This document shows positions 27,553-49,069 of a stretch of 64,000 bases of DNA, piece after piece (position 1 is the stretch's first letter; every line of letters starts with the position of its first letter). The stretch comes from an uncultured Nitrososphaeraceae archaeon (lineage in GTDB: Archaea > Thermoproteota > Nitrososphaeria > Nitrososphaerales > Nitrososphaeraceae). The notes under the pieces are model-generated. The model was not told where the DNA came from. It searched no databases and saw nothing but the letters and a program-made list of their open reading frames with translations. The translations under genes and the position numbers were made by a program. The stretch is taken from contig CAVSMN010000016.1 in the NCBI GenBank assembly GCA_963729045.1, forward strand, positions 1-64,000, given 5' to 3'.

Positions 27553-27624
27553 ATGGTATAAAAAATTTTGATCCTTGACTACCGTTATATACTAAGTTGA
27601 ACTTTTTTCAACGGTGCAAATTGT

Positions 27625-27891
27625 ATGAACATAATCAAAACAGAAACACCGTTTTTAGTTGAAGCCAAATCGACTGGTGGTAATAACAGAAAAAACAGAA
27701 ATATTACTTACCACTTTATAGAATCCGCTCATACATTATGCTTGAATAAGGAAGAACTACTGCAAGCACAGCTTAAGGCCTGTCAAAGACTATTAAAACT
27801 TCCATATGAAAAAGAGGATGACAAGGACATTATTGAAAATGAGATAATAAAATTAAGTCAGGTTTTGAATGTAATTCGCAATTATCACTGA
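27625..27891 (+). CDS. Hypothetical protein
   Basis: 88-aa ORF, helical composition. Confidence 0.55.
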   Translation: MNIIKTETPFLVEAKSTGGNNRKNRNITYHFIESAHTLCLNKEELLQAQLKACQRLLKLPYEKEDDKDIIENEIIKLSQVLNVIRNYH

Positions 27892-30542: not shown

Positions 30543-31613
30543 TCAAAATTTATTTATTATTGACTTCAGTCCCTCGAAAGACTCGGCCGTTTTTATCGCT
30601 TTTTCAATTTCTTTTAGAGTAAAAATATGAGTTATCAATTCCTTCAATCTTATTTCATTGCTACTTACAAGACTCATTGCCTCTCGCAAGTTCTCTGGAT
30701 TTGAACTAAAACTACCATAAATTGATATCTGTTCATAGTGTATAATGTTGGGATCGATACTAATTAATTTGGTCGTCCCTTTGTCATCTATCTTTTTTAT
30801 ACCTGAAAAAATCATAATTTTCCCATTCTTATTGACTAATTTTAAAGCGAGATTTATTGAGTTTGGATTATTGTTAGAAATAAAAACTAAATTTGGAGAT
30901 CTGTGTCCATTCATTTCCTTTAATGAGGCCAAATCGTGATCTAAATAATTATCCTTGATTTGTATGATTTTATCAGCTCCAATCCTTCTTGCCGATTCTA
31001 ATCTATGATTAATTTTACCAATTATGGTTATTTTTGATTTGGGGAATATTTTCTTTAACAACATTAATTGCATGAGTCCAATGGGACCATCACCAATAAT
31101 TATGATGGACTCAAAGTCCAAATTTTTTATCTGATTAATGCCATTTATACAACAAGCCAGAGGTTCAATCAATGAAGCCTCCTCATTAGATATTTCTTCA
31201 GGTACTGGTACTATTCCTCCGATTTCAAATATTTTAGTTGGAACTTTAATATATTCAGCAAATCCGCCATTAATAGTAGAGCCAATTTCCTTTAAGTTTG
31301 AACATAAGTTATATTTCCTATTCTTACAAAACCAGCATTCAAAACATGGGACTATTGGATAAATGGATACTCTGGAATTGGACTTGATAGTAAAATTTTT
31401 TCCTCTATAATCAGAAAGAGTCTCAGCACAAATCTCGTGACCTAAAATAACAGGAGGAGTTACCTTAAAACTTCCATTTCTGAATGTCCTAACATCATAG
31501 CTACAAACTGAACATGTTAGAATCTTTAAAATTATTTCGTCCTGAGATTTCGTATTTATATCTATATTTTCAATTTTTATATCATTAGGTCCATAGTAAA
31601 GTGCGGCATTCAT
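30543..31613 (-). CDS. Zn-dependent polyol/cyclitol dehydrogenase (MDR family)
   Basis: CSYD, LGHE, CxxCxxC-x7-C, EPLACC and GDGPIG motifs. Confidence 0.88.
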   Translation of the reverse strand: MNAALYYGPNDIKIENIDINTKSQDEIILKILTCSVCSYDVRTFRNGSFKVTPPVILGHEICAETLSDYRGKNFTIKSNSRVSIYPIVPCFECWFCKNRKYNLCSNLKEIGSTINGGFAEYIKVPTKIFEIGGIVPVPEEISNEEASLIEPLACCINGINQIKNLDFESIIIIGDGPIGLMQLMLLKKIFPKSKITIIGKINHRLESARRIGADKIIQIKDNYLDHDLASLKEMNGHRSPNLVFISNNNPNSINLALKLVNKNGKIMIFSGIKKIDDKGTTKLISIDPNIIHYEQISIYGSFSSNPENLREAMSLVSSNEIRLKELITHIFTLKEIEKAIKTAESFEGLKSIINKF

Positions 31614-31682
31614 TGGTAGATCAATTTTTTATATCTACTCGTGTCATTATTGTATATATATTTAATTTGGAACTAATATAGA

Positions 31683-32492
31683 ATGGCGCGATTTTTCGAC
31701 CCACATATTCATATGTATTCAAGGACGACTGATGACTATGAGAAAATGTCAACTGCCGGTATCGAGGTTATAGTTCAGCCGTCATTTTGGCTAGGAGCAC
31801 CCCGCACAAGTGTTGGTACTTTTGTAGATTATTGGGAGCACATGATCACCTTTGAAACGAAAAGGGCCAAAGAGCATGGCATAGAACACTTCACCTGTAT
31901 TTCAGTTAATCCAAAAGAATCGGTAGAAAGACCTTTAGCAATAGACGCATATAATGCTATGATAGAGGGGGAATTCCTAAAAAGAGAACGAGTAGTTGCT
32001 CTTGGTGAGATTGGATACAACCTTATCAACATCCTTGAGGAGGAAATTTTTGTGAAGCAATTGGAAGCCTGTAGAAATGAAAGTATGCTTACTATGATAC
32101 ACCTGCCACATCAAAATAAGGCTGAAGGTATGAGAAAAATGAAGAGAATATTTGAGAATGGAAATTATGATTTTGATAAGATACTGATTGATCACAATAC
32201 CGAAGAGACAATTAAGATGACTTTAGACATGGGTGCTTGGGCTGGCCTATCAGTTTATCCGGTTTCGAAGCTATCTCCAGATCGGGTCATCGGTATAGTA
32301 AATAAAAACGGAAGCGAGCGCATAATGGTTAATAGCGCAGCAGATTGGGGAATATCTGATCCACTAAGTGTACCCATGACAGCAAGAGAAATGAGAAAAA
32401 ATAAATGTTCTTCACTAGATATTGAAAGAGTTACATTCCTAAATGCATATGAATTCTATAAACAATCAGAAAAATTTACATGGAGACCCTAA
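31683..32492 (+). CDS. TatD-family hydrolase, EboB-like
   Basis: DPHIHMYSRTTDDYE, QPSFWLGAPRTSVGTF, VNPKE and NSAADWGISDPLSVP match EboB-type TatD signatures as I recall them. Confidence 0.85.
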   Translation: MARFFDPHIHMYSRTTDDYEKMSTAGIEVIVQPSFWLGAPRTSVGTFVDYWEHMITFETKRAKEHGIEHFTCISVNPKESVERPLAIDAYNAMIEGEFLKRERVVALGEIGYNLINILEEEIFVKQLEACRNESMLTMIHLPHQNKAEGMRKMKRIFENGNYDFDKILIDHNTEETIKMTLDMGAWAGLSVYPVSKLSPDRVIGIVNKNGSERIMVNSAADWGISDPLSVPMTAREMRKNKCSSLDIERVTFLNAYEFYKQSEKFTWRP

Positions 32493-32783
32493 CGACATTA
32501 GTCTCTAGATGTGTTTATGTAATAAAATGGCGATCTTGATCATCCCTCAATTTTATAAAGTGAAATCAACTTTAACTCATGAATAAAAATAAAAAAACCA
32601 CGATCTTTTTACCAAATCCAAGATAGATCGACCGTCTAATTTTTACTTGATTGTACAATTAGTATTATAAATATGGAGAACATTTTGAATAACCCAACTA
32701 AAATATAATTGATTTAATACATTTGAATTTATTTTATCCTGAATAAGAACGTTTTTATAATTCGAATAGTCTACATGTAGCTT

Positions 32784-33744
32784 TTGGATCAATTCAACGA
32801 GTTCTTGTTACTGGTGGGGCAGGATTTATCGTAGTCATAATGTTGATGAATTACTAAAGAGAGGATTTGAAACATTTATAATTGATAATTTTTCTAGAGG
32901 TAAATTGGATAATTTAAAACATAATCTTTCAAACCCAAAGTTGCATATTTTACGTGGAGATATTTCCCAAATTCATGATATTTTGAAAGATTTAAAGGAT
33001 TTAGATATCGTATTTCATGAAGCTGTAATAACAAGTGTCACAGAATCAGTCAGAAATCCTGAAAATGTATTTGATTCAAACGTAGCATCCACCATGAAGG
33101 TAATTGATTTCTGTGTGAATTATGGTGTAAAAAAGATTTTTTTTGCATCATCCTCAGCTGTCTATGGGGATCTACCCAACGATGTATTAAGGGTAGATTT
33201 AGCGTGCAAACCAACCTCTCCATATGGGGCTTCAAAGTTATCCGTGGAAAACTATCTTCATGGTTATTGGAAAACTTATGGGCTAAAATGCGTCTCATTA
33301 CGATATTTCAATGTATATGGTTCTAGACAAAGTAATATTGAGTATAGCGGAGTATTAACGATTTTTATTGGTAGGTTGATAAACAATCTAGCCCCTATTA
33401 TTTATGGCGATGGGTCCCAGACTAGGGATTTTGTAAATATTAAAGACATAGTATATGCCAATATGCTCTCTATGGAGTCTAACAACGCTGTGGGTGATAT
33501 TTTTAATATCGGAACCGGAGTTCCTACCTCAATTTTAGATCTAGTTCAGATTGCAAAGAACACAATCGGCAAGAAAGAAATTTATCCAAAGTACACTGAC
33601 GCTCGGGCGGGAGATATTCTTAAAAGTCTTTCGGATATATCTAAAGCCCGAAACTTGTTAGGATACTATCCAAGAATAGATCTCCGAGATGGACTTGAAA
33701 GTTTTGTGAGATCTTATTTATCTTCATCGCTCATCCATGTTTAA
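32784..33744 (+). CDS. NAD-dependent nucleotide-sugar epimerase/dehydratase (5' frameshifts)
   Basis: RVLVTGGAGFI upstream of ORF 32905; ASSSAVYG, YGASK, LRYFNVYG, GDGSQTRDF. Confidence 0.88.
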
Positions 33745-34450
33745 ATCATTAGGTTGAACGAATTCATAGCATTTTTAGAACATTCTTATGGGTTTGCAAT
33801 AGATTGCCAAAGAGTATAGGAAAATTTAGAAAGAGTTATCCTGATATTTCTTCTTGGTTGTATTTTTTTATTGAAGTCAATCCTATCAAACAGAGAAATT
33901 TCAACAATACACTATCGCAAAGGAGTCTATGATTTAGCAAATTATTATGTAGAGATACTATTTTTGACTTGTTATTTTTCGAAGGTTCTATATATGATGA
34001 TTTCAATCCCTTAGACAAAAAAATTTGTATACTGTATCACAAAGAATGCAATGTGTATACCTGTATTCGCTTACTTCCAGTTCCTTGCATAAGGTGCATC
34101 AATACAGAAATATTTCAATCCTTTTCACATCTTTACTTTGTAAATAAAGATCATACATTAGAAACACCATGAATTCGCTCACAACAAAAAATCAATATTT
34201 TTAGTCCCTAAATAAAAAAGGCGGAAAGAATTTGCCTTAGATCCCTAATTTTATTCTAATGGCTCATAAATGTTCTGTAACCAAGTAAATGAAATCAAGA
34301 ATCAATAGTGTAGGAACTAAAAAAATATGGGGGTTTCTAAAATCAATTGTGACAATTTTTGTTTGTGGTCCAAAAAAAAGTATACCAGAGTGCGAGCTAG
34401 CCTCAATACCAATAGAAGTTCTTAATATAGTATAATATCATACTATAATA

Positions 34451-34930
34451 ATGTCTGAAGCAAAAAATGTTAATCCACATTATGAAAAAATAGTAGATTG
34501 GCTTAAAAAGGACCCAATTTGTAACGTGGACGAAACATTAGATGATGATAATACGGTATCCATTATTAATACAAGTTATTTCGAAGATTTCAAAATCAGT
34601 GTTTATCTTTATAAAACTGACATGGGGCGAATTGAAATCATATCTAGACCTCGTCTTATAACTGAGGAGGGTAAAATTCTACAAAATAGGGCCAACGATG
34701 TAATTAATGATTTTCAAACACAATTGACGATGGATTTACTGAAGGTGGGTGTATTTTGTTCATTGCAAACAAACAATGAGGGTAATTCCATTGGTCTCAC
34801 TTTGCTGTATCCCTTGTTCTTTGATAACCTGACGCGGGAATTATTTATGCAGGCTGTCCATACCGTAGCTAGAGCATGTTTGATAACGGCTCTAGAATTT
34901 GATAAGTTTGCTCTTGATTATCAAGAGTAG
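34451..34930 (+). CDS. Hypothetical protein (possibly DUF2299/YbjN-like)
   Basis: 159-aa ORF ending LFFDNLTRELFMQAVHTV; family call tentative. Confidence 0.55.
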   Translation: MSEAKNVNPHYEKIVDWLKKDPICNVDETLDDDNTVSIINTSYFEDFKISVYLYKTDMGRIEIISRPRLITEEGKILQNRANDVINDFQTQLTMDLLKVGVFCSLQTNNEGNSIGLTLLYPLFFDNLTRELFMQAVHTVARACLITALEFDKFALDYQE

Positions 34931-35520
34931 CCTCAAAATGTTAAATTGTAGTTATTCTGTTGCCTAAATAATTCATTAATAGGAAAACCTTTTTTTTGAA
35001 TCGCATTGGTCTATCACATAAATCTGATGACATTTGGAAATAAAAGAATCCAAAACTCAGACTTGTTCCGGATTTAATCTTGCTATCTGATGTTTTGCTT
35101 TAATTTGAATTTATTGAATGTTCAAATAAGGAAATAAGGGAAATAAGGACATGGATAGAAACAAGAATTAAAAAAACTTGATTCCCTATTTTTGATAAGT
35201 CTATTGCTTAACAATAGTTACTAATTTATCTACTTAATCACTTCCATTAAAGCCTTCAATAAATTATCTGCTAACAATCAATTCGTATCTATTAGCGATT
35301 TGAATCGTGAGGTTTTTTCGATAAACTAATTTATTTTCGGGCTTAATGACATGGTCAATCCTATTTAGAAGTACATGAGTCAAATTTCAAATTTGTTAGA
35401 AGAATTGTATCTAAGTTTTTTTATGAATTGGCTTGATGTGTTCAGGCATTAAACTAAATATTATATAATATTCCTTAATATAGGATTAATTTTTTTTAAA
35501 AAAAGGAGATGGGGCTAGGC

Positions 35521-36039
35521 TTATCTTTGTGCTAATGCATTATTGCCGGTATTGACCTGGTTTTGGAAATTAAAATTGTTGCCAGAACCGACTGTATTCC
35601 CGCCTGACACAACCTGGCTATTTTGACTGGAGGATTGTGATTGACCTATTCCTTGACTAGCTTTGTTGCCACCCTTTCCATTTCCATCTTGTGCCAATGC
35701 ATTGTTTCCACTGTTCTGTTGGTTTTGGACGTTTATGTTGTTACATGAAGCACTAGTACTGCCGCCGGAAACACATTGAGAATTTTGACTAGAGGATTGT
35801 GATTGACCTATTCCTTGAGAAGCCTTGTTACCATTACCATTGTTGTTATCATTATGGTGCCTAAAGTAATTCTTGCACCAGTTCTTACTATGATCATCTC
35901 TACAGTCTTCCCAATCATTGTACTTTTGCTTCGCTAATACGCTATTTATTCCGGATATAGATGGACCCATAATCATTACTGTCGCAAATACTGCTACAAC
36001 TAATAGTGCAGTTTTTTTTGTATGCTTTGACCTTAACAT
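35521..36039 (-). CDS. Secreted Q/N-ladder protein with two repeat units, copy C
   Basis: Signal peptide, WEDC-x7-C minidomain, then NKASQGIGQSQSSSQNSQ...GNNALAQ twice. Confidence 0.85.
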   Translation of the reverse strand: MLRSKHTKKTALLVVAVFATVMIMGPSISGINSVLAKQKYNDWEDCRDDHSKNWCKNYFRHHNDNNNGNGNKASQGIGQSQSSSQNSQCVSGGSTSASCNNINVQNQQNSGNNALAQDGNGKGGNKASQGIGQSQSSSQNSQVVSGGNTVGSGNNFNFQNQVNTGNNALAQR

Positions 36040-36456
36040 TTTAGTCTTATATTGTATATTATGAAAATATGATATAACAATTTGTTAAGATTATCAGAGT
36101 AATTATTTCTGTTCATTCTATTCATTAATTTGTTATGGAATAGTTTTAGGATTTCTTTATATAGCACTTATAAGACTAAGCAAATGGATTTCCGTGTATT
36201 AGGTAATTAATGAAAAAAGGGATCTTGTAACTCGTAACTAGTTATTCACTAATAAGGGACTGCTCTCAAAGAAATTTACTTTCGGCGGTTGAATTACTGA
36301 TAAACTTGATAGAACACAATCGATCTAATACTATTATTTCAAATATTCTAATTGTATATCCAAGATTTTCTATATTATTGATGATTTTTAATTCTATTAT
36401 AAAATTTTTGGGTTTAAAAAAATAAGATGTGGCAATACTAATTTAAAATAAAAGGT

Positions 36457-36714
36457 TTATTGTTGGCCTGCTGCGTTGTTACCATCTTGTGCGTTTATAG
36501 ATAAGCCTACATTGTTACATGATGCAAGCGTATTGTTGTCTGTTGCACATTCTGAAAATTGACCTGTCTCTGATAATTGGCCTAAAAATTGTGCTCCGTC
36601 GTTGCTACTTTTTTTGGTTGCAAATGCCATATTATCTCCAAATGTTACTGTTGAACCCACTAATGCTGCTGCAATAAAGATTGACAAGATCGACAATTGA
36701 ATTTTATTATTCAT
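36457..36714 (-). CDS. Small secreted Q/N-ladder Cx9C protein, copy D (intact)
   Basis: Signal peptide nearly identical to copies A/B; QFLGQLSETGQFSECATDNNTLASCNNVGLSINAQDGNNAAGQQ. Confidence 0.85.
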   Translation of the reverse strand: MNNKIQLSILSIFIAAALVGSTVTFGDNMAFATKKSSNDGAQFLGQLSETGQFSECATDNNTLASCNNVGLSINAQDGNNAAGQQ

Positions 36715-36754
36715 GTGTATATGTTCTTAGTATTGTATAAGTGAATTGTTTAAG

Positions 36755-36777
36755 CAGATTCTGAAATAATCTTACTA
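36755..36777 (-). promoter_or_regulatory. Conserved 23-bp upstream element, copy 3
   Basis: cagattctgaaataatcttacta is the exact reverse complement; 41 nt from the start codon at 36714. Confidence 0.7.
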
Positions 36778-37218
36778 TAATTAATTCCCATATATCAAAT
36801 GTCAACAAGCATGAACAAACTGGTAATATTTTACCTCATCACTTTTTTCTAATTGATGGGAATTACTCGTTGATTTCTCAGATTATATCCATCTTACTCC
36901 TCTAACAGCTTAATCATTTAGATAGAAAAAACAAAATCAAATATCTAATTTTCTTGTGCCTAAATATATTGATGTCGGTTTAGTCAAGTATCCTTACCGT
37001 GATAAAAGCTAAATTTCCAAGAAAGATAATAAGGTTCATTGTAATATCCTACTTTATTTTGTCAAGAGTAGAAAAACCGATTTTAGTACAGTAATAATCA
37101 TTGCGTCGGCACCAGGAGAGGACATGTCTAGACTTTCATCTTGATATGATCAGCAAGTATTATTGGTGGGCTTCAATCCTCTGCTTTGCTATAGATTTTA
37201 GGTTAAGTAGTAATTATT

Positions 37219-37267
37219 TGAACAAATTGAACAAGAATATGAACAAACTGAACAAGAATCTGAATAC
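37219..37267 (+). repeat. TGAACAA boxes in a 21-bp tandem unit
   Basis: TGAACAA at 37219, 37228, 37240, 37249 and TGAATAC at 37261 (spacing 9,12,9,12). Confidence 0.8.
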
Positions 37268-37276
37268 TTTAAATAA

Positions 37277-39116
37277 ATGTCAACTTATATGAGTGGAGAT
37301 TTGAAAGCATCAGAAAAATCCGTTATAGAAGGATATCTGAATGGAAATTCCTATGAAAAAATATCGAAACAGAATCAAATTTCAAAGGGAACCGTGTTTA
37401 ACATTATTAAAGGGTGGAAGGACCGGATTGCTGTCCCAGATATTGATTCTATAAGAGAATTCTCTGTCTTCGTAAACAAATCAGGGTTGACCCTAGATCA
37501 ATGTGTTCAAGGGGTTAGATTTATCAAAATCTTGTCTAAGCTTCGGAATCTCAGACGAATTAGATATTGGTCAGGCGCTTTATTCTGATGATAATACTCA
37601 TTTTAAATATACCCACCTGGAAGAGAATACAGGAATTACGGATGATGAAAGTGCTGGAAAAAAATCTGGTAGAGATGCCGCAACCCGCAGAGACAGTTTT
37701 TATCACTTTGTAGGTAATCTTTATGATAATTGTAAAATTCATCATATAGATCCCGCTATCATAGTAAGATGGATGGATGACTTGTTAGAATTTGGCTTTT
37801 CTACCTTCAATTCCAATACAATTGAATCGAATGCTGGCGGTACACCTATCGATGACGCAACAAATTTTCCAAAAAATAGTATCGTAAGGATCAAAAGAAA
37901 CCAAATATCCTTAATTTCTAAAATTGACAATTATCTTGAAAAGGAGAAGCTAGAATTTCAAAGACTGCAACAAGCCAGGATCAAACTTTCGAGAGATATC
38001 AAAAGGGCAATTCAACACAAGAACACTATTGTCTCTAACCTAGAAAAAACTATGATAAAAGAGCGAAATATCATGAAGTATTATTCATGGTATAAGTCCC
38101 TTATGCAAGAACTAGAATATGAATACGGTATAGATATCGGAGAGGAATTCGGCTCCTTTGCAAGGGCAATTGTAGATTTCAAGGCTTATAACTACAATGT
38201 GCTCGATATTATCAAAGATTATAAACAGATCGAATCATTGAGAGAAGAGAAAGAGAAAGTTCAAAGTATAATTGATTTAATTACACACAAAAGAGATATC
38301 CTACTCGAAGAAATTGACTCTCTACAGGAAAACCTTAGCTATTCAACCCAGTCCTTGAATACCTATAAGGAATTACTTGAGAGAGGGCTTGGACTTAAGG
38401 AACTCAAACAGCTATTAAACACATTAATAGAAATCTCTAGAGCTAACAAAATAGCTGACTGGGAAGCATTGCCCAGATTTCTCAACGATGTGGAAAAACA
38501 ATACGATAATAAACTAGGATTTGAAAGCACATTAAATAATCTTAAGGCAAAAATGGAGAAACTTCAGGCTGAAGTTCCAGAATATAAATGGTATTTAAAA
38601 TTACAGGGGGTTGTAAGCCCAACCATTATCCATCTTAACAGATGTGGTGTAACAAACGAAGACATTCTTAACATAAATAGTTTGGTGCTATCTTTCAAGA
38701 ATTCCAATTTTATTGATGATCTTGCACTTAGGGAGAATGGTAACGGTGTAATTAAAAATGGTACTCTTAATAGGAACGAATACTGGCAACGATTTATAGA
38801 AAAATTAAAGAGTTTAAAAAATATTCATTTGGCGATTAATCAGAGTACGTCCATTTCTAATAATCTAAAAATACAAATCGAAAGATTAAAGGTAAAAAAG
38901 CAGGAGTTGGAAAAAAATTATTCCGACGCAGTAACAAATCTGAATCACATTCTTATACAAACGTCTTTTTCAATTGAAGTAACCAGACATCTCCAACAAG
39001 AAATAAATAAAAAATTGTTGACTGCTGCGGGACTGAATCCAATAATGTTTAATGTACTAATAATAAGAAACAAAGATGAGGAAAACAATAAAAAGGAAAA
39101 CAACGGTGACGAGTAA
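37277..39116 (+). CDS. N-terminal HTH plus long coiled-coil protein (frameshift near 37540)
   Basis: YLNGNSYEKISKQNQISKGTVFNIIKGW HTH in 37277..37588; heptad-rich 37503..39116. Confidence 0.75.
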
Positions 39117-39789
39117 AGGTTATTTGAATTAATTTTGAGGTTTGTATTATTTTTGATAATTATCGAAGAGAAAGGATGATGACCTGGCTATCACTTACGA
39201 AATAATGAATCACTAAAAATTCTCTTAATATCGTCAATTTTGATGTAATTCGCGATTCTCTTTAGGAAGTTTTTGCAAAAAATAAAAAGTTGTGAATATG
39301 ATTAGTTCGACTACAATATTAGAGGGGAGGGGATATTACCGAATCACTAAAACAGGGAAGAATTTTGGTTAGTATTTTTCCTCTTCCTGCATATATTGCA
39401 ATATTTTATCTGCGGTTTGCAAATCGTGTCTTTTGCTACGGACGGGGTTTAAACCCTGTCTTTCAATACTTGAGTTTTTTTGTAATGACTTTTCTTCACC
39501 TCCTACTGTACCAAACTTGATTTTTTTTCTTTGCTTTTTCATGCTCGTTTTAGTCCAATAAACTATAAAACTGGTTACTTTTTTACCAAATTAAACAATA
39601 AGGATTTGATAGGGCAGGGAATAAAGGTATAATATAGATAAATCCTCAATTTTATCGATTTAATTAACCTTTCAAGTCTTCATATGGCGTCTCATCTCCA
39701 CCAATTTGTTCAAATTCTTAATTTGACGTGGCCCTTCCTAAAACGGAAAAAAATAAATTATTTCAATAATCAAAATATGAAGATGAAAT

Positions 39790-39936
39790 TTAAGAAACTC
39801 CACTAGGCTGTTTATGTTCTGAATGTTCAAGCTTTATGTGCTCTTCTTTCTCATCCTTGTTTCTAAATGTAATTCCGCAAAGGTGGCATGTATTATCAGA
39901 AGACGGTTTGTTAGCTGGTTCGCCAGTTGTCCCCAT
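39790..39936 (-). CDS. 48-aa C2H2 zinc-finger microprotein (not in ORF track)
   Basis: MGTTGEPANKPSSDNTCHLCGITFRNKDEKEEHIKLEHSEHKQPSGVS*: CxxC-x3-F-x8-H-x4-H. Confidence 0.8.
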   Translation of the reverse strand: MGTTGEPANKPSSDNTCHLCGITFRNKDEKEEHIKLEHSEHKQPSGVS

Positions 39937-40409
39937 ATTAACAACTATACAGCATTTGTAAATATAAGCATTAAATTGGTTGATTAAGAAGAGCTGTCCA
40001 GCAGCCGAACAATTATAATTTGATACTATTGATGGGTTAATATTTTTCTAGATTTTTATGTTTTTGAGTAAAACCCTCCTTCAATAAGCAAAAATTTATT
40101 ATTTGATCTTAACAATTTTACTACTATTTTCATTTTGAAATTGTTTGATTGGATACCATTTCTTCATAGAAAAAATGGCTATGACGTTATGACCAATATC
40201 GTTGAAATCATTTCAGTTTTCTTGCGAATAACTCAATACTGCAGGTTGACTCCAGATATGCAGTCTTTCACTATCATACAATCTTTCCTTTATCATATTT
40301 CCATTCTTCCCAATCTCACGCAAGAATACAATTATTAATTTTTTTAATCCAATTAGCGTAAATACTAGATATATTTAGTTTTATATTAGACAAGGTAGGA
40401 AAATGAAAA

Positions 40410-41009
40410 ATGGAAGGGATCGATGATAAAAATAATAGTGATTCTAATTTGGACCCTAAAGATGATACTGAGATAACTAAAAAATACTTAATAGAAATTG
40501 TTGGGAAATTTAAAAATATTTCTACCATAGAACTTCCAAATTATGAAGAGGCCTTAGAATTATTTAATCAGAGGTCAAAGGAAGGGAAAAATCTAATACT
40601 TTATGAGATACACAGATCAAAAATTGATGGATCGATGGTTAAAAAGGTTCCAGTGCTTAATACATCCAAGCATGCAGAGAGAATGCGAGTTCTCCAAGAG
40701 GAATTAAAGGATTCTACTCCCGCCAATAATGGGACAGTTAATGCTCCAGCTTCTACGCCATCCTCTCCGGACCAGAAAAGTAAAATGACACTTGGAACAA
40801 TGAAATTTAAGATAATAATTCTAGCTGCTGTAGTAGCTGGTTTTATACTGACACTATTTATGTTAAATATCATTGCAAGTGGAGGTAGTGGAAGTATGTC
40901 TGCCCATTCGATCGGATTTGATGCTATCCAGAACTACGTTCAAACTGCATCAAATGTTAATTACAATTACAATCATCAGGATTTAGTTTCGATCTATTTT
41001 CTTCCCTAA
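40410..41009 (+). CDS. Single-pass membrane protein
   Basis: 199-aa ORF with one TM helix near the C-terminus. Confidence 0.65.
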   Translation: MEGIDDKNNSDSNLDPKDDTEITKKYLIEIVGKFKNISTIELPNYEEALELFNQRSKEGKNLILYEIHRSKIDGSMVKKVPVLNTSKHAERMRVLQEELKDSTPANNGTVNAPASTPSSPDQKSKMTLGTMKFKIIILAAVVAGFILTLFMLNIIASGGSGSMSAHSIGFDAIQNYVQTASNVNYNYNHQDLVSIYFLP

Positions 41010-41460
41010 TATCAAATTTCTATTAGCTCTTAATTCCTTTAATACAAATTTTATCAGAATCTATTTGTTTAAATTTTAAGCCTTAGAACCAAACTATGTT
41101 GTTCTTGCAAAACTACTGCATCTCAATTTTGTTAATGAGGTTCTTAGTCTAAAAGAAAAATCAACTCAGTTCTGTCGAGACTTATTCACCATTCTACCGT
41201 TTTTCTAATCCCTAGGATGAAAAAAACATCTTTCTCATGTGCCTCATAACAACCATTTTCAAATATCTATTCGAAAACACCACCCCCAAATGCATCAGAT
41301 TTTCGACAATATGCAAAGACATCAAATGATGAAATTTAGAATGTTAGTGCAAAATCTCCTAATACATTTAAATAATCCATTTCATCGAAAATTTGATCAT
41401 ATGGATAATAATTGTCTTTTATTCCCAATTATATAATAATATATCTAACAGTAAATCCTT

Positions 41461-42645
41461 GTGAATATTCTGATATCGTTGTTACTTCTATTCTCCGTAG
41501 TAGGTGGAAGCTTGATTTTATTTGATTATGATGATATTTTTGCACAAAGCACTGATTTCCAATTACCGTCTTTATCCTTTAGCACTCCCTATTCAGACAT
41601 GCCATCAAACTTGGAAGGCTCGCTTTCAGAACTCGGTGATATAGATGAAGTGGATTCTCAAGTGAAAGAAATAATAAAACCAGCATTTCAGAATCCGTTA
41701 GAAAATTCTGCTACTAAAGAAAAGGATGATATTTCGTCTGTCATTGATTCCAAAGGTAGTGGGATTGGAGAAGAAAGTGCTTCTACTACCAGTAGTAGTG
41801 ATGGTAATGTATATGTGGTAGACTATGCTAATATTCGAGTTCAGAAATTCAATAATCAAGGTGACTATATCTCTAAATGGGGTACCAAAGGCCAGGCGGA
41901 TGGTCAATTTGGAGTGCCTCATGGAGTAGATGTTGACAAAGAAAGGAATGTTTACATCGTCGATATGGATAACAATAACGTTCAAAAGTTTGATAGCGAA
42001 GGTAACTTCCTCTATAAATGGGGCTCCAGGGGTACTGGGGATGGCCAATTCATGCATCCTCATACCATCAAATTGGATTCAGCTGGCAACTCCTACGTAA
42101 GTGATATGGCAAACTTTAATATTCAAAAGTTTGATAGCGAAGGTAACTTCCTCTATAAATGGGGCTCCAGGGGTACTGGGGATGGCCAATTCAATGCCCC
42201 TGAAGGAGTTGCTATGGATTCTTTGGATAACATATATGTTACAGATACTGATAATAATAACGTTCAAAAGTTTGATAGCAAAGGTAACTTTATCTCTAAA
42301 TGGGGAACCACAGGTGAAAATGAAGGCCAATTCAAGAAGCCTGCTGGCCTGGATATAGATAAAAATGATAATATTTATGTAGTAGATGCTGGCAATAGTC
42401 GAATCCAAAAATTTGATAGCAATGGTGAATTCTTGACAACATGGGGATCAAAAGGACCAGGAAACGGACAACTAGCTAGCCCCCATGATGTGGCGGTAGA
42501 TTCTGAAGGAATCGTTTACGTAGTTGAGCAGCTAAACTTTAGAGTTCAAAAATTTGATAGCAATGGTGAATTCTTGACAACATGGGGATCCGAAGGAAGC
42601 AATGACGATCAATTTCTTGATCCTCACAGTATTGTGGTATCATAA
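41461..42645 (+). CDS. Secreted NHL-repeat beta-propeller protein
   Basis: 47-aa repeats YVxDxxNxRIQKFDSxGxFxxxWGxxGxxDGQFxxPxG; two repeats share an identical DNA stretch 141 nt apart. Confidence 0.92.
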   Translation: MNILISLLLLFSVVGGSLILFDYDDIFAQSTDFQLPSLSFSTPYSDMPSNLEGSLSELGDIDEVDSQVKEIIKPAFQNPLENSATKEKDDISSVIDSKGSGIGEESASTTSSSDGNVYVVDYANIRVQKFNNQGDYISKWGTKGQADGQFGVPHGVDVDKERNVYIVDMDNNNVQKFDSEGNFLYKWGSRGTGDGQFMHPHTIKLDSAGNSYVSDMANFNIQKFDSEGNFLYKWGSRGTGDGQFNAPEGVAMDSLDNIYVTDTDNNNVQKFDSKGNFISKWGTTGENEGQFKKPAGLDIDKNDNIYVVDAGNSRIQKFDSNGEFLTTWGSKGPGNGQLASPHDVAVDSEGIVYVVEQLNFRVQKFDSNGEFLTTWGSEGSNDDQFLDPHSIVVS

Positions 42646-42828
42646 TATTTTTCACAAATTTTATTAATTAGACACTGGTTTTATTAACTCTCATTTTATT
42701 TCTATATCTTTTGCAAAATTTGAGATAATCTGCTTTATGCAGGAGCAAATATGGGTCTAAATATTCAAAGATGATACTCTACCTTAATTACTACATAACT
42801 ATTTAAACCAATGAAAATAATTTTTTTT

Positions 42829-43647
42829 GTGAAGTTTGCTTTTAGCACTAACGCCTTTACCAATTATTCATTAACCCAATCAATAGAAGAAATTTCCAAA
42901 ATAGGTTATGATGGTGTCGAGATAATGTGTGACGTTCCTCATGCATATCCCCCAAAATTGAATGAAAATAAAATTAAGGAAATTAGTAATTCGCTAATTC
43001 GTAATAGAATAGAAATTTCCAATCTAAATGCTTTTACTTTATTTGGCTTAGGTGATACATACCATCCTTCTTGGATAGAAAATGCAGAAGATGTCCGAGA
43101 GCTCCGCATCCAACATACTTTAGATTGCATTAATCTAGCTGAAAAACTTGGTGCAAAAAATATTTCTATAGAACCAGGGGGACCAATCGAGGTGCCTACA
43201 AACAGAGATAAGTATTTAGATCTTTTTGCGATGGGAATAAGAGATGTTCTTCCTCATGCGGAAAAAAAACAGATAAAGGTATTAATTGAACCAGAACCTG
43301 AATTATTGATTGAATCTTCGACTGAATTTTTGCATTTTATGAAGGAATTTGATTCTGAATTTTTGAAATTAAATTTTGATATTGGCCATTTTCACTGTGT
43401 TAATGAGGATCCAAGTGCTTTAATTCTCAAATTACAGGCCTATATCGAACATTTTCATATGGCCGACATAAAAAACAGAAAACATTTCCATTTGATCCCT
43501 GGACATGGATCGATTGATTTCAAATCCGTTTTTGCGAAAATGGACGAGATAGGCTATAAAGGATATGTTACTGTCGAACTCTACCCTTATAAGACAAACC
43601 CAATATATGCTGCTGTAGAATCGATAAAGTATATTAATTCAATCTAG
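42829..43647 (+). CDS. Sugar-phosphate isomerase/epimerase, xylose-isomerase-like TIM barrel
   Basis: MKFAFSTNAF start (GTG 42829), IEPEPELL, NFDIGH, HFHMADI, HFHLIPGHG, VELYPY. Confidence 0.88.
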   Translation: MKFAFSTNAFTNYSLTQSIEEISKIGYDGVEIMCDVPHAYPPKLNENKIKEISNSLIRNRIEISNLNAFTLFGLGDTYHPSWIENAEDVRELRIQHTLDCINLAEKLGAKNISIEPGGPIEVPTNRDKYLDLFAMGIRDVLPHAEKKQIKVLIEPEPELLIESSTEFLHFMKEFDSEFLKLNFDIGHFHCVNEDPSALILKLQAYIEHFHMADIKNRKHFHLIPGHGSIDFKSVFAKMDEIGYKGYVTVELYPYKTNPIYAAVESIKYINSI

Positions 43648-43680
43648 GTTATGTAACTTAAAATATTTGGATGAACAATC

Positions 43681-44618
43681 ATGTTTCAAAATCCCTACCT
43701 AAAGCTCCTCCGAATTTCTAATGTTTTCACGGTTCCACCAGACATTATTGTAGGATTTTTAGCAGTATCCATCCAACTTAACTTCTTCGACTGGTCACAG
43801 TATTTCCGATCTCGTAATTTTGATTTTTTCTTCCATTTTTTTATACCTTGGAGGTATGGTCTCAAATGATATATTTGATATCAAAGTGGATAGACTAGAG
43901 AGACCAACTAGACCATTGCCCTCAGGCAGTATAAGAAAAACAAATGCATTACTTCTGACCATCCTCATGTTTAGTTTGGGATTAATCCTTGCGGTCATTT
44001 GTCAATCATTCTGCTCTTGGAATCTCATTGTTACTCATTATAGGTATAATATCCTATAATTATAAAATCAAGAATGGATTTTTCAGACCATATTTGATGG
44101 CAGGAATACGAGCATTGAATGTTATTTATGGCGCCAGTTTTGTATTTGACATATCCAATTATAGCACGGGTCTTAGCTCTTTTCTATTACTTGCTTTGGC
44201 ATCTTGTGTCGTGTATTTTCATATCTTCATCCTGACCTCTCTTAGCAAAAGCGAAACAACCCGAGAATTTTTAAGAGTCAAAAACGTCCTAAATATTCAA
44301 AAAATTCAAATCATATATCTTGTATTTCTGCTTTTCTCTTTATCACTAGCAATAATTTTAATACCCTTTAAATTGGATTTCCTGATTTTCATCCTATTCT
44401 TCTTGTTCTTGATCAATTTACTTTTCAATAGAGCTTCCAAAATGGACAACAGCCAAGGCGAATCAATGATAAGATTCATGGTCAAACATATGCTAATTCT
44501 GCTTATAATTCTGGATTGCGCATTCATAGCTGGTGAAGCTGGTCTACTCAGCGGGTCAATTGTAGCATTACTTACAATTCCGTGCATAGTACTTGGTAAA
44601 TGGATTAGCATGACTTGA
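43681..44618 (+). CDS. UbiA-family prenyltransferase, EboC-like (two frameshifts)
   Basis: YLKLLRISNVFTVPPDI, LYLGGMVSNDIFDIKVDRLERPTRPLPSG, YNYKIK...MAGIRALNV and IILD across three overlapping ORFs. Confidence 0.85.
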
Positions 44619-44698
44619 GCAAGTACATAGATTAGGCTATAATTTCTTTTTTTTCATCCAAAATTACAATCTGACGAGATATAGGCATATCAGTTGAA

Positions 44699-45286
44699 GT
44701 GCTTAATTTACAAATTTTTTTAAATGGGCTTTCACGAAGTGTATTCAACATGAATAGAACTATTAATTTGACTTTACTTGTAACTCTATGCTGTTTTTTA
44801 ACATCAGCTTTTATCTTTAGCTGGCCACCAAATGATCCAAACAGTCATGCTTCTTCTTTCTTACCTGAGAAGAATTCAACATTTTCAAATTCTTCAACAA
44901 GTAGTTTTGAAAGTAATCCAATAACGACAATTATCATTCCAAATGAGGGTTCAAATTTAATTACAAATTCTAATAGTGATAATAATAATGTAACTGGACA
45001 AAGTGCCCACCAAACAAATCCATTGTCCTCTATTAATACCAGCTCAAGTTTAGTGAAAAATCAAAGTGATTTTGCTTCCTCTTCTGATACTTTAAAGAGG
45101 AATGTTAGTAGTGAAGGTACTAATAATGATACCTTATCGGATTCTCAACAAAGAGGCAAATACCTAACTGACAATAACGGAATTCACTATTATAATATCA
45201 ATAATTGTAGTGAGAAGAAAGGATCATCAGGCATCGGGGAAATGTCTGAATGTGAAGATGCTGCAAAGGAAATGAGTGAAGAATAG
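44699..45286 (+). CDS. Secreted Ser/Asn-rich protein with small two-Cys C-terminal domain
   Basis: Hydrophobic N-terminal segment, low-complexity linker, YYNINNC...SECEDA. Confidence 0.6.
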   Translation: MLNLQIFLNGLSRSVFNMNRTINLTLLVTLCCFLTSAFIFSWPPNDPNSHASSFLPEKNSTFSNSSTSSFESNPITTIIIPNEGSNLITNSNSDNNNVTGQSAHQTNPLSSINTSSSLVKNQSDFASSSDTLKRNVSSEGTNNDTLSDSQQRGKYLTDNNGIHYYNINNCSEKKGSSGIGEMSECEDAAKEMSEE

Positions 45287-45466
45287 AAAAAAAATCATTG
45301 GTTTGACTTTAAGGACTAATGATAAATAAAGTACGGTAATTTTATTTATTATTATTTGTTTGCACATCAACTCAATAGAATTCTGGTACGCATTTTTTCA
45401 TAATATATTTCAAAAAAATAAGGTGAAGGTCCGCAAAATACTAATACCAATAGATAAACGAACTTT

Positions 45467-45835
45467 CTATGGTGCTATATTGTCCCTTTTGAGATTACTA
45501 AGTGGGTTTTTTTCTCGTATGGCCAATATTCCTGCAATAACAAATAATGCCAATGCTGGTATTGCGAACCATTGAATAAGTGCGAAAAGCATTACACCAC
45601 ACGCTATCAAGATACCTCCAACAATTTTATTATTTTTAATCTTAAATGCAGCAAGAATAGCTCCTACGTTTATTGCTATTATAGCTATTGCTATTAGTAG
45701 AGCCCAGCCAACAAAAAGGGCCAATATTGGGATTCCAACAAAGCTATTTATCAGAAAATACAAAAAGAGCCCGATAAAGGGAATAATGAGTCCTAAAATA
45801 GCTGTAATAATAGTTAGCTTTTGATAGCCTTTCAT
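45467..45835 (-). CDS. Four-TM membrane protein
   Basis: 122 aa, strongly hydrophobic. Confidence 0.7.
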   Translation of the reverse strand: MKGYQKLTIITAILGLIIPFIGLFLYFLINSFVGIPILALFVGWALLIAIAIIAINVGAILAAFKIKNNKIVGGILIACGVMLFALIQWFAIPALALFVIAGILAIREKNPLSNLKRDNIAP

Positions 45836-46328
45836 ATTTTTGTATATAGAGAATAGTAATTAAGTCATGATCCTATTGCTCTTCCTATTATCTTGGTAAG
45901 TACCCCTGTACAGGACCGTTTTAGTAAATAAAGATTAATTTTAATAATGAATGATGTTGAAAGTTGAAAATTGGGTGACAATTAAAATATCAACCCTTTT
46001 TCCGCCATAATGCCAATCGTGGTGTAATGTGATGCCGACCCTTTCAACAACTTCCAGATTTTCCAGACGTGTATTGGTTTGAAGGTAAGACATTGGGATA
46101 TCAAGCAAGGGATTTGGATGTTGTTTTTGCTTGACAACAATGCTTTATTAGATGCAATATTAGGTGCACCTAACTATAATATAAACAATTTCTTGATTAT
46201 CAAAAGTAATAATATCATCAACAAGAATTAAACCGATTGTATATGTTTCAAGCATAAAAACATGGTTTTATTATTAATATCAATATAATTCACTAGTTTT
46301 AAATAAGAACTTACGATATCTCCTATAT

Positions 46329-46475
46329 ATGGCAAAATGTCCATCTTGTAAGGAATCAATAAATCTAAGCCAACTAATAACAGAGGAATTTGAGGATGGG
46401 GACCTATTATTCAAGTTCTTAGGCTTGAGTTGTCCCAAGTGCGAGATACTTTTAAAAATACAAAAAATTGATTAA
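46329..46475 (+). CDS. 48-aa zinc-ribbon microprotein (not in ORF track)
   Basis: MAKCPSCKESINLSQLITEEFEDGDLLFKFLGLSCPKCEILLKIQKID*, two CPxC knuckles; tttaaata box about 30 nt upstream. Confidence 0.78.
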   Translation: MAKCPSCKESINLSQLITEEFEDGDLLFKFLGLSCPKCEILLKIQKID

Positions 46476-46713
46476 TACACATTTAATAGACAACTAACGA
46501 ATTTTGGATCTGTCTTCGGGTCTTCTTTTTTTAATTAGTCATTCAATTTTCTTTTTTCGATAATATTGGATTAAATGAATTTGTACTTTAGAAATCCATT
46601 ATTTGTTATTCTCTAGAATGACAGCGAGGAAATTATTATTGGACAAGCAAACTAGTGTCCATCTTTTTGTTATTACCTATACAAGCAGAATTTTGTATTG
46701 ATTAATAAATACT

Positions 46714-48171
46714 ATGACCAATATATTTACTTGTTTGACAAACAACACTAGTAAAAATTCAAAATATTTTGTTATTTTAGATATCGTGGGATTAGATGTT
46801 TCTCGTATTGAATCTTCAGCACAAATATATCCTAACATATCCAGTTTGTTTGAGAACGACGGTGAATATGGATACATGAAACCCGTGTTTCCCTCAGTTA
46901 CATGTACCTCACAGGCTAGTATTTTGACAGGAAAATATCCAAAGGAACATGGTATTATTTCAAATGGTTTTTTCGATAGAGAAAACTTCCAGACTTTGTT
47001 CTGGGAGCAATCTACTAATCTGGTTCAATCTGAAAAAATATGGGATACACTAAAAAACAAAAATAACATGCTCAAAACAGCCCTATTATTCTGGCAAAAT
47101 TCTATGTATTCGAACAATGACTATGTTGTCACTCCTCGTCCTATCCATTTAGAAAATGGACAGATGGATATGTGGTGTTATTCTAAACCGGTTAACTATT
47201 ACGAGGAAATAAGCAAAGAAGTTGGCGAATTCAATCTGATGAATTATTGGGGCCCATTTGCATCCATAAAGTCCTCAGAATGGATATCAAAATCTGTTCA
47301 ATACACTATCAAAAACCATCGTCCCAATTTGTTGTATGCATATTTTCCACAACTCGATTATACTGCGCAAAAATTTGGGCATTCTAGTTCCCAAGTAACC
47401 GACGATTTAAAGCAAATCGATATTTATGTTGGTAATATTATAGAAAAGGTCAAGGAAGCAGGTATCTTTGATGAAACTCATTTTCTATTGCTCTCTGAGT
47501 ACGGATTTAACGATGTCAAAGATGCAATACCAATAAATAGAATATTAAGAGAAAAGGGATTGCTTCAGGTGAGAACAATTAATGGAAAAGAGTATATTGA
47601 CTATGAATATAGTGATGCGTTTGCAATGGTAGATCATCAGATAGCACACATTTATATCAACAACAGAAACAATATGAGCAAAGAAAAGATTAAGATTGCT
47701 ATTGAAGGTGTTCCCGGAATCGACAAAGTTTGCGATGAGGAAGAAAAACAAAAACTTCACATAAACCATTCAAGAAGTGGAGAGCTTATTGCCATAGCGG
47801 AAATAGACAAATGGTTTAGTTACTACTGGTGGTACGATGAACAGAAAAATAAGAGCCCAAATTTGGATGAAACTGAAACTGATGATGGCAATGACAATGC
47901 ACCTAGCTTTACTAAAACAGTGGATATTCACAGAAAACCCGGTTATGATCCTCTAGATCTTTTCATAGACCCAAAAAGAAAATGCATCTCCACAGATACC
48001 CGTCTAATAAAGGGTTCCCATGGACGACCATATAATATTGAATCAGGAGAGGGATTATCGGCCTTCCTATCAAACAAAAAGATTGAACACATCAAAAAAG
48101 AGAAGTTTGACGGGTGTCCAGTAATAAATTGCCTGGATATTTTTGATATTGTAAAAAAGAACTTTATTTAA
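46714..48171 (+). CDS. Alkaline phosphatase superfamily nucleotide pyrophosphatase/phosphodiesterase, EboF-like
   Basis: PVFPSVTCTSQASILTG, HGIISNG, VTPRP, SEYG, AFAMVDHQIAHIY, VDIHRKPGYDP, IKGSHGR. Confidence 0.88.
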   Translation: MTNIFTCLTNNTSKNSKYFVILDIVGLDVSRIESSAQIYPNISSLFENDGEYGYMKPVFPSVTCTSQASILTGKYPKEHGIISNGFFDRENFQTLFWEQSTNLVQSEKIWDTLKNKNNMLKTALLFWQNSMYSNNDYVVTPRPIHLENGQMDMWCYSKPVNYYEEISKEVGEFNLMNYWGPFASIKSSEWISKSVQYTIKNHRPNLLYAYFPQLDYTAQKFGHSSSQVTDDLKQIDIYVGNIIEKVKEAGIFDETHFLLLSEYGFNDVKDAIPINRILREKGLLQVRTINGKEYIDYEYSDAFAMVDHQIAHIYINNRNNMSKEKIKIAIEGVPGIDKVCDEEEKQKLHINHSRSGELIAIAEIDKWFSYYWWYDEQKNKSPNLDETETDDGNDNAPSFTKTVDIHRKPGYDPLDLFIDPKRKCISTDTRLIKGSHGRPYNIESGEGLSAFLSNKKIEHIKKEKFDGCPVINCLDIFDIVKKNFI

Positions 48172-48232
48172 GAAGTTAGGAAAATTAGAAAGCATATTAG
48201 CATAAAATAATAGAAAATAAGAATCAAAGGAA

Positions 48233-49069
48233 ATGGCATTTTCATATTCTATTACATTATCTTCATTTCTGAACGTACAAAAAAACGAATTAGAAACTCT
48301 AGAGAACCTTAGCCGACTCGGTTTAACTGAAGTGGAATTGTATGGAGAACCAGATGAGGTAAACTCGGAATCCCTTAAGGATCTTTTGAATTCATTTGAT
48401 ATTAGGGTAATAGGTATCACTGGAATGTGGGGTAGGTCGAGTTTGAATGGATGGAAAAGACGTCTTTTAAGTAACGATAAATCCATACTGAAATATTCTG
48501 AAGATTATGTGTTAAAGTGTATTAAGTTATGTAACTATTTTGGAGGAAAACGAATTAATTTATGTTTGTTTTCAGATCCTATTTATTCTTTTGATGTAAC
48601 CCATAGAAACGTTAATGAAAACAACAAGACTAAAGTGTTAGAAAGTTGTGTGCCATTGTTGAACCGTCTTTTAAAAACTGCAAGAGAAGAAAATGTCTCT
48701 TTGATGGTCGAACCACTAAATCGTTATTCAACACCTTACTGTTGTACTTATTCAGATGTAATCTCGCTGATTGAAAAGTGTGATGAATTAGAACTCATGT
48801 TAGATACCTTTCATATGAATATTGAGGAAGATTCTTTTGAGGATGCGATCTTAAATTCCCACCTTATCCTCTCCCATATGCACTTTGCTGATAACAACAG
48901 GAAGATGCCTGGTTTTGGCCATATCGATTTTAATATGATAGTAAAAACCTTAAAAAAAATTTCATATGATGGCAAAATTAGTTTTGAACCCACAATCTTG
49001 AATAGAAATTATTATTCTGCAGTGAAATTTGGATTAGACCATGTAAAAAAACTTGATTTAAAATATTAA
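48233..49069 (+). CDS. Ketose 3-epimerase-like (DTE/IolO-type) TIM barrel
   Basis: VEPLNRY, LDTFHMNIEE, HFADNNRKMPGFGHIDF, SFE. Confidence 0.85.
   Translation: MAFSYSITLSSFLNVQKNELETLENLSRLGLTEVELYGEPDEVNSESLKDLLNSFDIRVIGITGMWGRSSLNGWKRRLLSNDKSILKYSEDYVLKCIKLCNYFGGKRINLCLFSDPIYSFDVTHRNVNENNKTKVLESCVPLLNRLLKTAREENVSLMVEPLNRYSTPYCCTYSDVISLIEKCDELELMLDTFHMNIEEDSFEDAILNSHLILSHMHFADNNRKMPGFGHIDFNMIVKTLKKISYDGKISFEPTILNRNYYSAVKFGLDHVKKLDLKY

Follow-up and report, generated by a model that had tools for sequence, protein, structure and literature searches.

Does a soil-type ammonia-oxidizing archaeon (AOA) carry a version of the ebo genes, and if so, what could such genes make? The ebo genes have been an orphan pathway for a decade, and a passage of a February 2026 review (PMC12904256) still calls their product unknown. 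The question arises from a 64,000-nucleotide stretch of an uncultured Nitrososphaeraceae genome (contig C16:1-64000, hereafter the window; genome of 2.85 Mb in 22 contigs, 87% complete, ∼33% G+C). In an earlier note, made from the window alone, a TatD-fold hydrolase, a UbiA-family prenyltransferase, two TIM barrels, a phosphodiesterase (PDE), a Zn-dependent dehydrogenase and an NDP-sugar epimerase were proposed to form an archaeal variant of the ebo set. All of these genes were recovered where that note had placed them, by an open reading frame (ORF) listing combined with Pfam and NCBIfam scans, on which the gene calls are based (Table 1). The two TIM barrels are termed TIM1 (TIMb type) and TIM2.

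The window genes for TatD, PDE, TIM1 and UbiA are orthologues of annotated ebo-cluster genes. The interpretation as an AOA variant of ebo is thus supported by orthology, by the shared order TatD-TIM-UbiA-PDE and by co-occurrence. The sequences describe a real, conserved and reduced ebo-type module, present in most of the sampled Nitrososphaeraceae (92 of 121 genomes) and in a few members of other AOA families. With moderate confidence, we favour the reading that Nitrosocosmicus here has its own copy of an ebo-type module, the product of which is a small molecule that derives from a cyclitol, is prenylated and is akin to saccharoquinoline/thallusin, although probably identical to neither.

Comparators were found by tblastn of a plasmid collection with the intact UbiA of genome G002. 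The classical eboABCDEF operon (Yurchenko et al. 2016, PMC5133447) is represented by the Aureibacter plasmid pAT1. A Deinococcus cluster has the order EboD-x-TatD-EboE-UbiA-phosphodiesterase, and a Nonomuraea locus reads MIPS-UbiA-short TIM-TatD-EboE-phosphodiesterase, where MIPS denotes inositol-phosphate synthase. Two further clusters contain short TIM barrels: the Bacillus cereus plasmid p1 (NZ_CP045607.2; TIM-TatD-TIM-eboC-phosphodiesterase-inositol-3-phosphate synthase) and a plasmid of Natronococcus sp. CG52 (NZ_CP099392.1; TatD-TIM-UbiA-TIM-MIPS-phosphodiesterase). When these comparators were searched in reverse against the whole genome, their best or only match was the window gene in each case.

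The TatD and PDE genes are assigned to the ebo subtypes EboB and EboF, respectively. In BLASTP comparisons the window TatD was 45% identical to its counterpart in the B. cereus operon, 42% to Aureibacter EboB and 37% to Deinococcus EboB, all over their full length, and 36% to that of Natronococcus. The genome holds two TatD genes, a canonical one on contig C15 (PF01026, 153 bits) and the divergent window copy; the ebo TatD comparators match only the latter. In the alignment, the window TatD and EboB have in common the motifs DPHxH, SRTTDDY, HTPH, DHN and ADWG.SDPL. The nearest and only solved relative of this TatD is the uncharacterised Archaeoglobus protein AF_1765 (PDB 3guw). The PDE, a member of the NPP/alkaline-phosphatase family and the sole PF01663 gene in the genome, was 41% identical to the B. 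cereus protein, 37% to Aureibacter EboF, 37% to the Natronococcus protein and 38% to Deinococcus EboF. The solved structures nearest to it are nucleotide pyrophosphatases/phosphodiesterases (NPPs), which give no functional help.

Outside the AOA, a sample of 201 genomes from the phylum Thermoproteota yielded 15 TatD-like matches with 29-35% identity to the window TatD; they come from 14 of the 17 genomes of one family (f27) and from one genome of another (f56). These were not counted as EboB and were taken instead to represent a more distant family related to AF_1765. A broader family of this TatD subtype may exist in archaea.

The prenyltransferase is placed in the EboC clade and not with digeranylgeranylglyceryl phosphate (DGGGP) synthases or with quinone or heme O prenyltransferases, in line with what the earlier note had supposed. 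In protein scans of the intact UbiAs of relatives, the EboC model NF035940 was the best of 18,950 NCBIfam models (142-173 bits), followed by the SCO3242 family, and DGGGP synthase models scored 47-75 bits; the fragments of the window UbiA gave 73 and 40 bits against NF035940. A search of 1.84 billion protein representatives with a profile built from eight Nitrosocosmicus UbiAs retrieved 158 proteins at E≤1e-30. The best 150 of these, minus 13 fragments, comprise 137 near-full-length proteins, for which the top family (at a threshold of 1e-35) was EboC in 129 cases and its sister family SCO3242 in seven; one had no family call, and no other UbiA family attained this threshold. Eight of the 137 pass the EboC cut-off. 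The first Asp-rich motif, NDxxDxxxDxxERPxRPL, is retained, and the remaining pattern of conservation fits EboC proteins. Pairwise identities are low: the intact G002 copy was 30% identical to the UbiA of B. cereus, 31% to those of Aureibacter and Natronococcus and 29% to that of Deinococcus in BLASTP.

The placement was similar in a phylogenetic tree, a quick maximum-likelihood reconstruction of 66 rows with long branches. The 64 EboC, SCO3242 and AOA rows were split from the two heme O synthases of the genome (SH-aLRT 100). All eight AOA rows fell into one group of 31 rows (SH-aLRT 89, not starred) inside the EboC/SCO3242 group, five Nitrosocosmicus rows among them forming a long-branched clade (SH-aLRT 100). 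The heme O synthases served as the sole outgroups because no clear DGGGP synthase was found in genomes G000, G012 and G043 with NF009521, the best matches being heme O synthases; the comparison with DGGGP synthases therefore consists of hidden Markov model scores.

When loci were searched with an alignment of Nitrosocosmicus UbiAs, 20 of those recovered belonged to Nitrososphaeraceae and one to Lentisphaeria. In the latter, the UbiA (L041 9809-10888; SCO3242 131 bits, EboC 124 bits) adjoins dnaN and recF with no ebo genes beside it, and it was rejected as a comparator. A weak UbiA-like ORF elsewhere (G000:C19:24380-24808; L080 1483-2187, minus strand; PF01040, 19.6 bits) adjoins a methyltransferase of the UbiE/MenG type.

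TIM1 lies directly upstream of the UbiA gene, the place of EboE in the classical cluster. Its listed ORF starts at 42811, while relatives begin at the residue corresponding to 42829. TIM1 was 48% identical to the TIM barrel upstream of B. cereus eboC and 42% to the one upstream of the Natronococcus UbiA. A profile of six TIMb proteins aligned with the EboE profile (hhalign; probability 96.3%, E 1.5e-9) over 148 central columns. Since Deinococcus EboE lies between TatD and UbiA, the position of TIMb in the Bacillus, haloarchaeal and AOA operons, and since a distant profile match exists, TIM1 is the positional equivalent and a distant sequence relative of EboE, but not itself an EboE. The nearest solved structure, MJ1311, offers no functional help. 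TIMb and TIMa, the second short TIM barrel of the Bacillus and Natronococcus clusters, are clear paralogues (41% identity).

TIM2 is of a different kind. It matches the NCBIfam models for IolO (137 bits) and psicose 3-epimerase (118 bits), and adjoins the PDE gene by coordinates in the genomes compared by eye. It was rejected both as the TIMa of the bacterial and haloarchaeal clusters, having 21% identity to TIMa/TIMb, and as EboE, having no profile match to EboE. TIM2 is accordingly a family-specific accessory gene. Its best PDB relatives are TM_0416 and ketose 3-epimerases, again with no functional help. The TIM2 gene that ends the compact operon of G043, a closed genome, is split into two overlapping ORFs (L045 6327-7207), possibly by a frameshift or as a pseudogene.

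The four core genes are kept in the order TatD-TIMb-UbiA-PDE, with a TIMb of ∼275-290 aa, in seven genomes (G043, G033, G035, G042, G067, G227 and G021). In G043 the arrangement is compact, with the dehydrogenase gene divergent from a TatD-TIM1-UbiA-PDE-TIM2 run, all within 6 kb. Two genomes from two other AOA families, G227 (closed, 1.6 Mb) and G021, carry TIMa-TatD-TIMb-UbiA-PDE. In the window the set is spread over 18.5 kb and interrupted by the genes that also interrupt it in the closed congener G070, and in the closed Nitrosocosmicus genome G012 it spans 14 kb; only the TIM1-UbiA pair of the TatD-TIMb-UbiA-PDE order remains adjacent in the window. Here, insertions have pulled the set into three pieces. 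In a genome of genus g29 (G068; L046 6773-11156), a TatD-TIM1-PDE-TIM2 run has a 500-bp gap at the place of UbiA; an EboC-like UbiA of this genome lies on a different contig (G068:C16:62784-63680).

Co-occurrence was evaluated in an even sample of 121 Nitrososphaeraceae genomes from 18 genera. TatD was detected in 99 of these, PDE in 102, a UbiA matching the EboC model (E≤1e-15) in 94 and TIM2 in 97. The trio of TatD, PDE and UbiA was complete in 92 genomes and wholly missing from 16, leaving 13 mixed cases; without three genomes flagged as unpublished (G062, G102 and G122), which these counts include, the numbers are 90, 16 and 12 of 118. The 16 genomes lacking the core genes also lack TIM2, and 12 of them are at least 94% complete, two being closed (G104 and G129). 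Ten of the 13 mixed genomes are at most 90% complete. Outside the family, an EboB-type TatD (∼50% identity) was found in four of the 127 genomes that lie outside it in a 151-genome sample of the order. The co-occurrence, together with the compact operons of other genera and of two further AOA families, places the grouping of these genes far beyond chance, and the association suspected from the window alone is thereby borne out.

Of the known systems, the short-TIM clusters of B. cereus and Natronococcus most resemble the AOA module. All have TatD-TIMb-UbiA-PDE genes with a short TIM upstream of UbiA, and all are devoid of EboA, EboD and a long EboE. The B. cereus cluster provided the highest identities to the window genes (TatD 45%, TIM1 48%, PDE 41%), and G227 and G021 show the B. 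cereus operon order minus MIPS. Unlike this genome, however, both clusters contain their own inositol-3-phosphate synthase and the second paralogous TIM, TIMa. Conversely, the Nitrososphaeraceae add the IolO-like TIM barrel and often the Zn-dehydrogenase, and the window genes are dispersed. The Nitrososphaeraceae form is specific to the family, having gained an IolO-like TIM barrel and a dehydrogenase and lacking TIMa, and it is fragmented in Nitrosocosmicus. A pyrroloquinoline quinone (PQQ)-dependent sugar dehydrogenase is located near both short-TIM clusters (L043 3344-4765 and L044 14893-16471); no homologue of it was found in this archaeal genome.

The classical operon of Aureibacter has homologues of the window genes in EboB (42%), EboC (31%) and EboF (37%), and the relative order TatD-EboE-UbiA-PDE of the Deinococcus eboD-B-E-C-F cluster matches TatD-TIMb-UbiA-PDE. 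In contrast to the window, classical clusters also encode EboA, the sugar-phosphate cyclase EboD and a 400-aa EboE, in whose place the window has a 275-aa TIM barrel. The Actinomycetota-type ebo/ino cluster of Nonomuraea is similar to the window in having no EboD, in its inositol-phosphate chemistry, in its short TIM and in a UbiA of the EboC/SCO3242 group. It differs in keeping a long EboE and a clustered MIPS, and its short TIM is only 26-30% identical to TIMa/TIMb.

Several observations weigh against the proposed assignment. The earlier note had seen neither EboA nor a cyclase in the window, and this absence now extends to the whole 87%-complete genome: no match to NF035938 (EboA) was obtained at E≤1, and neither PF01761 nor tblastn with Aureibacter EboD detected an EboD. 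The long EboE, a TIM barrel of ∼400 aa that is reported to be essential for thallusin, is likewise absent; genome-wide, the only match to NF035939 (EboE) is TIM1, at 30 bits versus a cut-off of 250, and TIM1 covers only the central half of EboE. None of the 121 family genomes passes the 250-bit equivalog cut-off of NF035940, the best score in a six-frame search being 192.6 bits. This cut-off is narrow, since the cluster UbiAs of Deinococcus, a true ebo cluster, and of Natronococcus score 107 and 197 bits, respectively, versus 326 bits for the short-TIM cluster of B. cereus. The five-gene run is contiguous in only six of 17 genus representatives and is split into two or more loci in the others. 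Moreover, co-occurrence among related genomes is not independent evidence, and the counts above describe a pattern rather than a statistic. Finally, the reverse search with the long EboE and the cluster-type MIPS gave no match in the genome, and neither the clustered inositol-3-phosphate synthase nor TIMa has an orthologue there. The sole MIPS is a housekeeping gene on contig C7, among genes of CoA biosynthesis, and shares only 23% identity, across 185 residues, with the MIPS of the Bacillus and Natronococcus clusters. With the cluster-type enzyme absent and the housekeeping one so remote, the source of the cyclitol is a guess.

A further difficulty concerns the reading frame of the UbiA gene. 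The family and position given in the earlier note hold, but the gene reads in three frames, which that note had not seen. Relative to the intact 322-aa gene of G002, a single base is inserted at each of two places, near 43773 and near 43995 (columns 93 and 315 of the alignment), and there is an in-frame length difference of 33 nt within a stretch that is variable among relatives. The gene could be a true pseudogene and the pathway dead in this genome. Two independent single-base insertions in one gene of 0.94 kb, neither of them in a long homopolymer, speak for such decay and hence against a working module here, as does the finding that this is the only mid-contig copy among the 121 family genomes whose best match falls in an open frame shorter than 150 aa (98 aa); the G064 copy is also in two pieces, but these lie at contig ends. 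On the other hand, the coding sequence is well kept outside the insertions, each piece having 76-88% amino-acid identity to G070, and the broken frame is far from unique in the window. In comparison with G070, nine of 39 syntenic ORFs are frame-split, four of these over three frames (one of the nine encodes a repeat protein, whose split may stem from the repeats, and the 30 unsplit ORFs include one antisense frame that is spurious). That about a fifth of the genes are broken points to an indel-rich assembly, which fits a genome 87% complete in only 22 contigs. The breaks in UbiA are therefore read as likely assembly artefacts rather than decay, and loss of the pathway is considered unlikely.

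What the module might produce can be outlined with the help of recent work on bacteria. A May 2026 preprint (10.64898/2026.05.21.724671) links the ebo genes to thallusin, which acts as a morphogen on green seaweed at picomolar levels; passages of it describe thallusin as a diffusible meroterpenoid assigned to the classical ebo genes. According to the same passages, the presence of ebo tracks thallusin production in 35 strains, each of eboB, eboC, eboE and eboF is essential for it in Stieleria, aspartate is incorporated into the product, and EboC from three phyla farnesylates hydroxylated quinaldic acids. They also report Actinomycetota producers that have inositol genes instead of eboD, and the absence of EboA in most Planctomycetota as well.

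In the AOA module, the starting material would be a six-carbon cyclitol, most likely an inositol phosphate from the housekeeping MIPS, given the lack of a dedicated cyclase. Oxidation of the cyclitol and its isomerisation or dehydration would fall to the Zn-dehydrogenase and the TIM barrels, the NPP-type PDE and the TatD-fold hydrolase would process phosphate or other hydrolysable groups, and the membrane UbiA would add a prenyl chain. A related product rather than thallusin itself is proposed in view of the divergence of the UbiA and the lack of EboA, EboD and the long EboE.

Other products are conceivable for the same set of genes. The module might make a prenylated cyclitol that stays in the membrane, as a lipid, a head-group precursor or a carrier, rather than a diffusible meroterpenoid signal, in keeping with the earlier note and with the scytonemin-export model of ebo. 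UbiA enzymes are integral membrane proteins, and C20 prenyl donors are abundant in archaea. Such a role would also suit the link drawn in part of Klicki et al. 2018 (PMC6282210) between ebo and transport of a precursor to the periplasm, and the statement in the preprint (10.64898/2026.05.21.724671) that the aspartate-condensing and ring-opening steps of thallusin synthesis have no assigned enzyme even in bacteria. However, the preprint argues that the effect on scytonemin may be indirect, and it shows activity of EboC on hydroxyquinaldic acids; a membrane product is judged improbable. Synthesis of thallusin or saccharoquinoline itself by the bacterial route seems more doubtful still. It would accord with the orthologues of eboB, eboC and eboF, with an EboE-related TIM barrel in the position of EboE, with the eboD-less Actinomycetota producers mentioned above and with the ebo clusters that the main text of the preprint counts in two archaeal phyla, which it does not name. 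Yet the EboE found essential in Stieleria is lacking here in its long form, the UbiA, long-branched in the tree, shares only 30-31% identity with EboC, and the genome has no dedicated MIPS or TIMa.

Least probable is a pathway for catabolism of sugars or inositol, or for a compatible solute, consisting of an Iol-like dehydrogenase, epimerase and dehydratase and unlinked to ebo chemistry. The dehydrogenase and TIM2 do match best to Thermotoga-type IolM and IolO, and TIM1 matches IolE and IolO, all under the respective cut-offs. Ammonia oxidizers are, however, autotrophs, and catabolism leaves unexplained why the genes are conserved as operon partners of a membrane prenyltransferase, an EboB-type TatD and an EboF-type PDE. 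A prenylated cyclitol-derived small molecule remains the favoured product. A bolder extension, which we put forward tentatively and hold to be rather doubtful, is that soil and some marine AOA use a pared-down module without a cyclase for a thallusin-like prenylated signal, possibly with a prenyl chain of archaeal length, that acts on plants, algae or neighbouring microbes. If so, these abundant nitrifiers would be a previously unrecognised source of cross-kingdom morphogens.

Full-text searches, together with the main text of the preprint, yielded no description of these genes in AOA; among the matches listed, none relevantly links eboC to Nitroso* organisms, and no paper was found that combines TatD, UbiA, inositol-1-phosphate synthase and archaea. 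Two recent AOA genome/transcriptome papers (PMC11559005 and PMC12448741) do not mention a prenyltransferase, TatD, pyrophosphatase, inositol, TIM barrel or xylose isomerase. These organisms are usually regarded as nitrifiers of minimal metabolism, and the module offers a concrete candidate for secondary metabolism in them that can be put to the test. Its reduced composition, without EboA, EboD and the long EboE, also helps to show which chemistry the pathway needs at the least. A single genus appears to include both cultured strains that have the cluster and cultured strains that lack it (closed G043 versus G104 and G129).

Table 1. Genes of the ebo-type set, genes lying between them and examples of frame-split ORFs in the window.
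Feature	Position	Strand	Remarks
Zn-dependent MDR dehydrogenase	30543-31613	-	Pfam ADH_N and ADH_zinc_N; divergent from the TatD gene
EboB-type TatD-fold metal hydrolase (TatD)	31683-32492	+	PF01026, 33 bits
SDR sugar epimerase	near 32723-33744		Frameshifted
DUF2299 protein	34451-34930		Between TatD and TIM1-UbiA
Secreted Q/N/S/G-rich repeat protein	35521-36039		Between TatD and TIM1-UbiA
Helix-turn-helix (HTH) and long coiled-coil pair	37277-39116		Overlapping ORFs; between TatD and TIM1-UbiA
199-aa membrane protein	40410-41009		Between TatD and TIM1-UbiA
NHL-repeat beta-propeller	41461-42645		Between TatD and TIM1-UbiA
TIM1 (TIMb), short xylose-isomerase-like TIM barrel, ∼275 aa	42829-43647	+	PF01261, 144 bits
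EboC-like UbiA-family prenyltransferase	43681-44618	+	Three frames
Pieces of UbiA	∼43681-43782, 43787-43993, 43989-44618	+	Three-frame tblastn
EboF-type nucleotide pyrophosphatase/phosphodiesterase (PDE)	46714-48171	+	NPP/alkaline phosphatase superfamily; PF01663, 215 bits
TIM2, ketose 3-epimerase/IolO-like TIM barrel	48233-49069	+	NCBIfam IolO, psicose 3-epimerase; directly after PDE
Frame-split examples, window 9000-64000	12081-12576, 26069-26847, 27252-27732, 32723-33639, 55866-57169, 58947-60883, 61305-62364		Comparison with G070

The Zn-dehydrogenase resembles the scyllo-inosose 3-dehydrogenase IolM (NCBIfam, 110 bits in the window and 129 bits in G012) as well as threonine and idonate dehydrogenases, all under cut-off. 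It adjoins the TatD gene in five of the 17 genus representatives, and in G012 the orientation of the pair is reversed relative to the window. In the form that the cluster takes in Nitrososphaeraceae, the dehydrogenase is likely an accessory member. The sugar epimerase, whose frameshift lies inside its Rossmann motif GxxGxxG, had also been counted as part of the set in the earlier note; this was not upheld, because the gene is missing from the cluster region of G012. Similarly, the thioredoxin reductase downstream (49446-50435) was rejected as a housekeeping gene.

Most of the genes that separate TatD from TIM1-UbiA (34451-42645) recur in G070 in unchanged order. An Rfam scan of the whole window gave no rRNA or other RNA family. 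The only G+C-rich stretch of the window (22434-25088, minus strand; 44.6% versus ∼33%) encodes a large protein of surface type, in which a unit of ∼95 aa occurs five times in tandem in near-identical form (DPPVADDQQVTANTADPTEITLTATDPGGNALTY...); the orthologue of this protein in G070 has 1240 aa.

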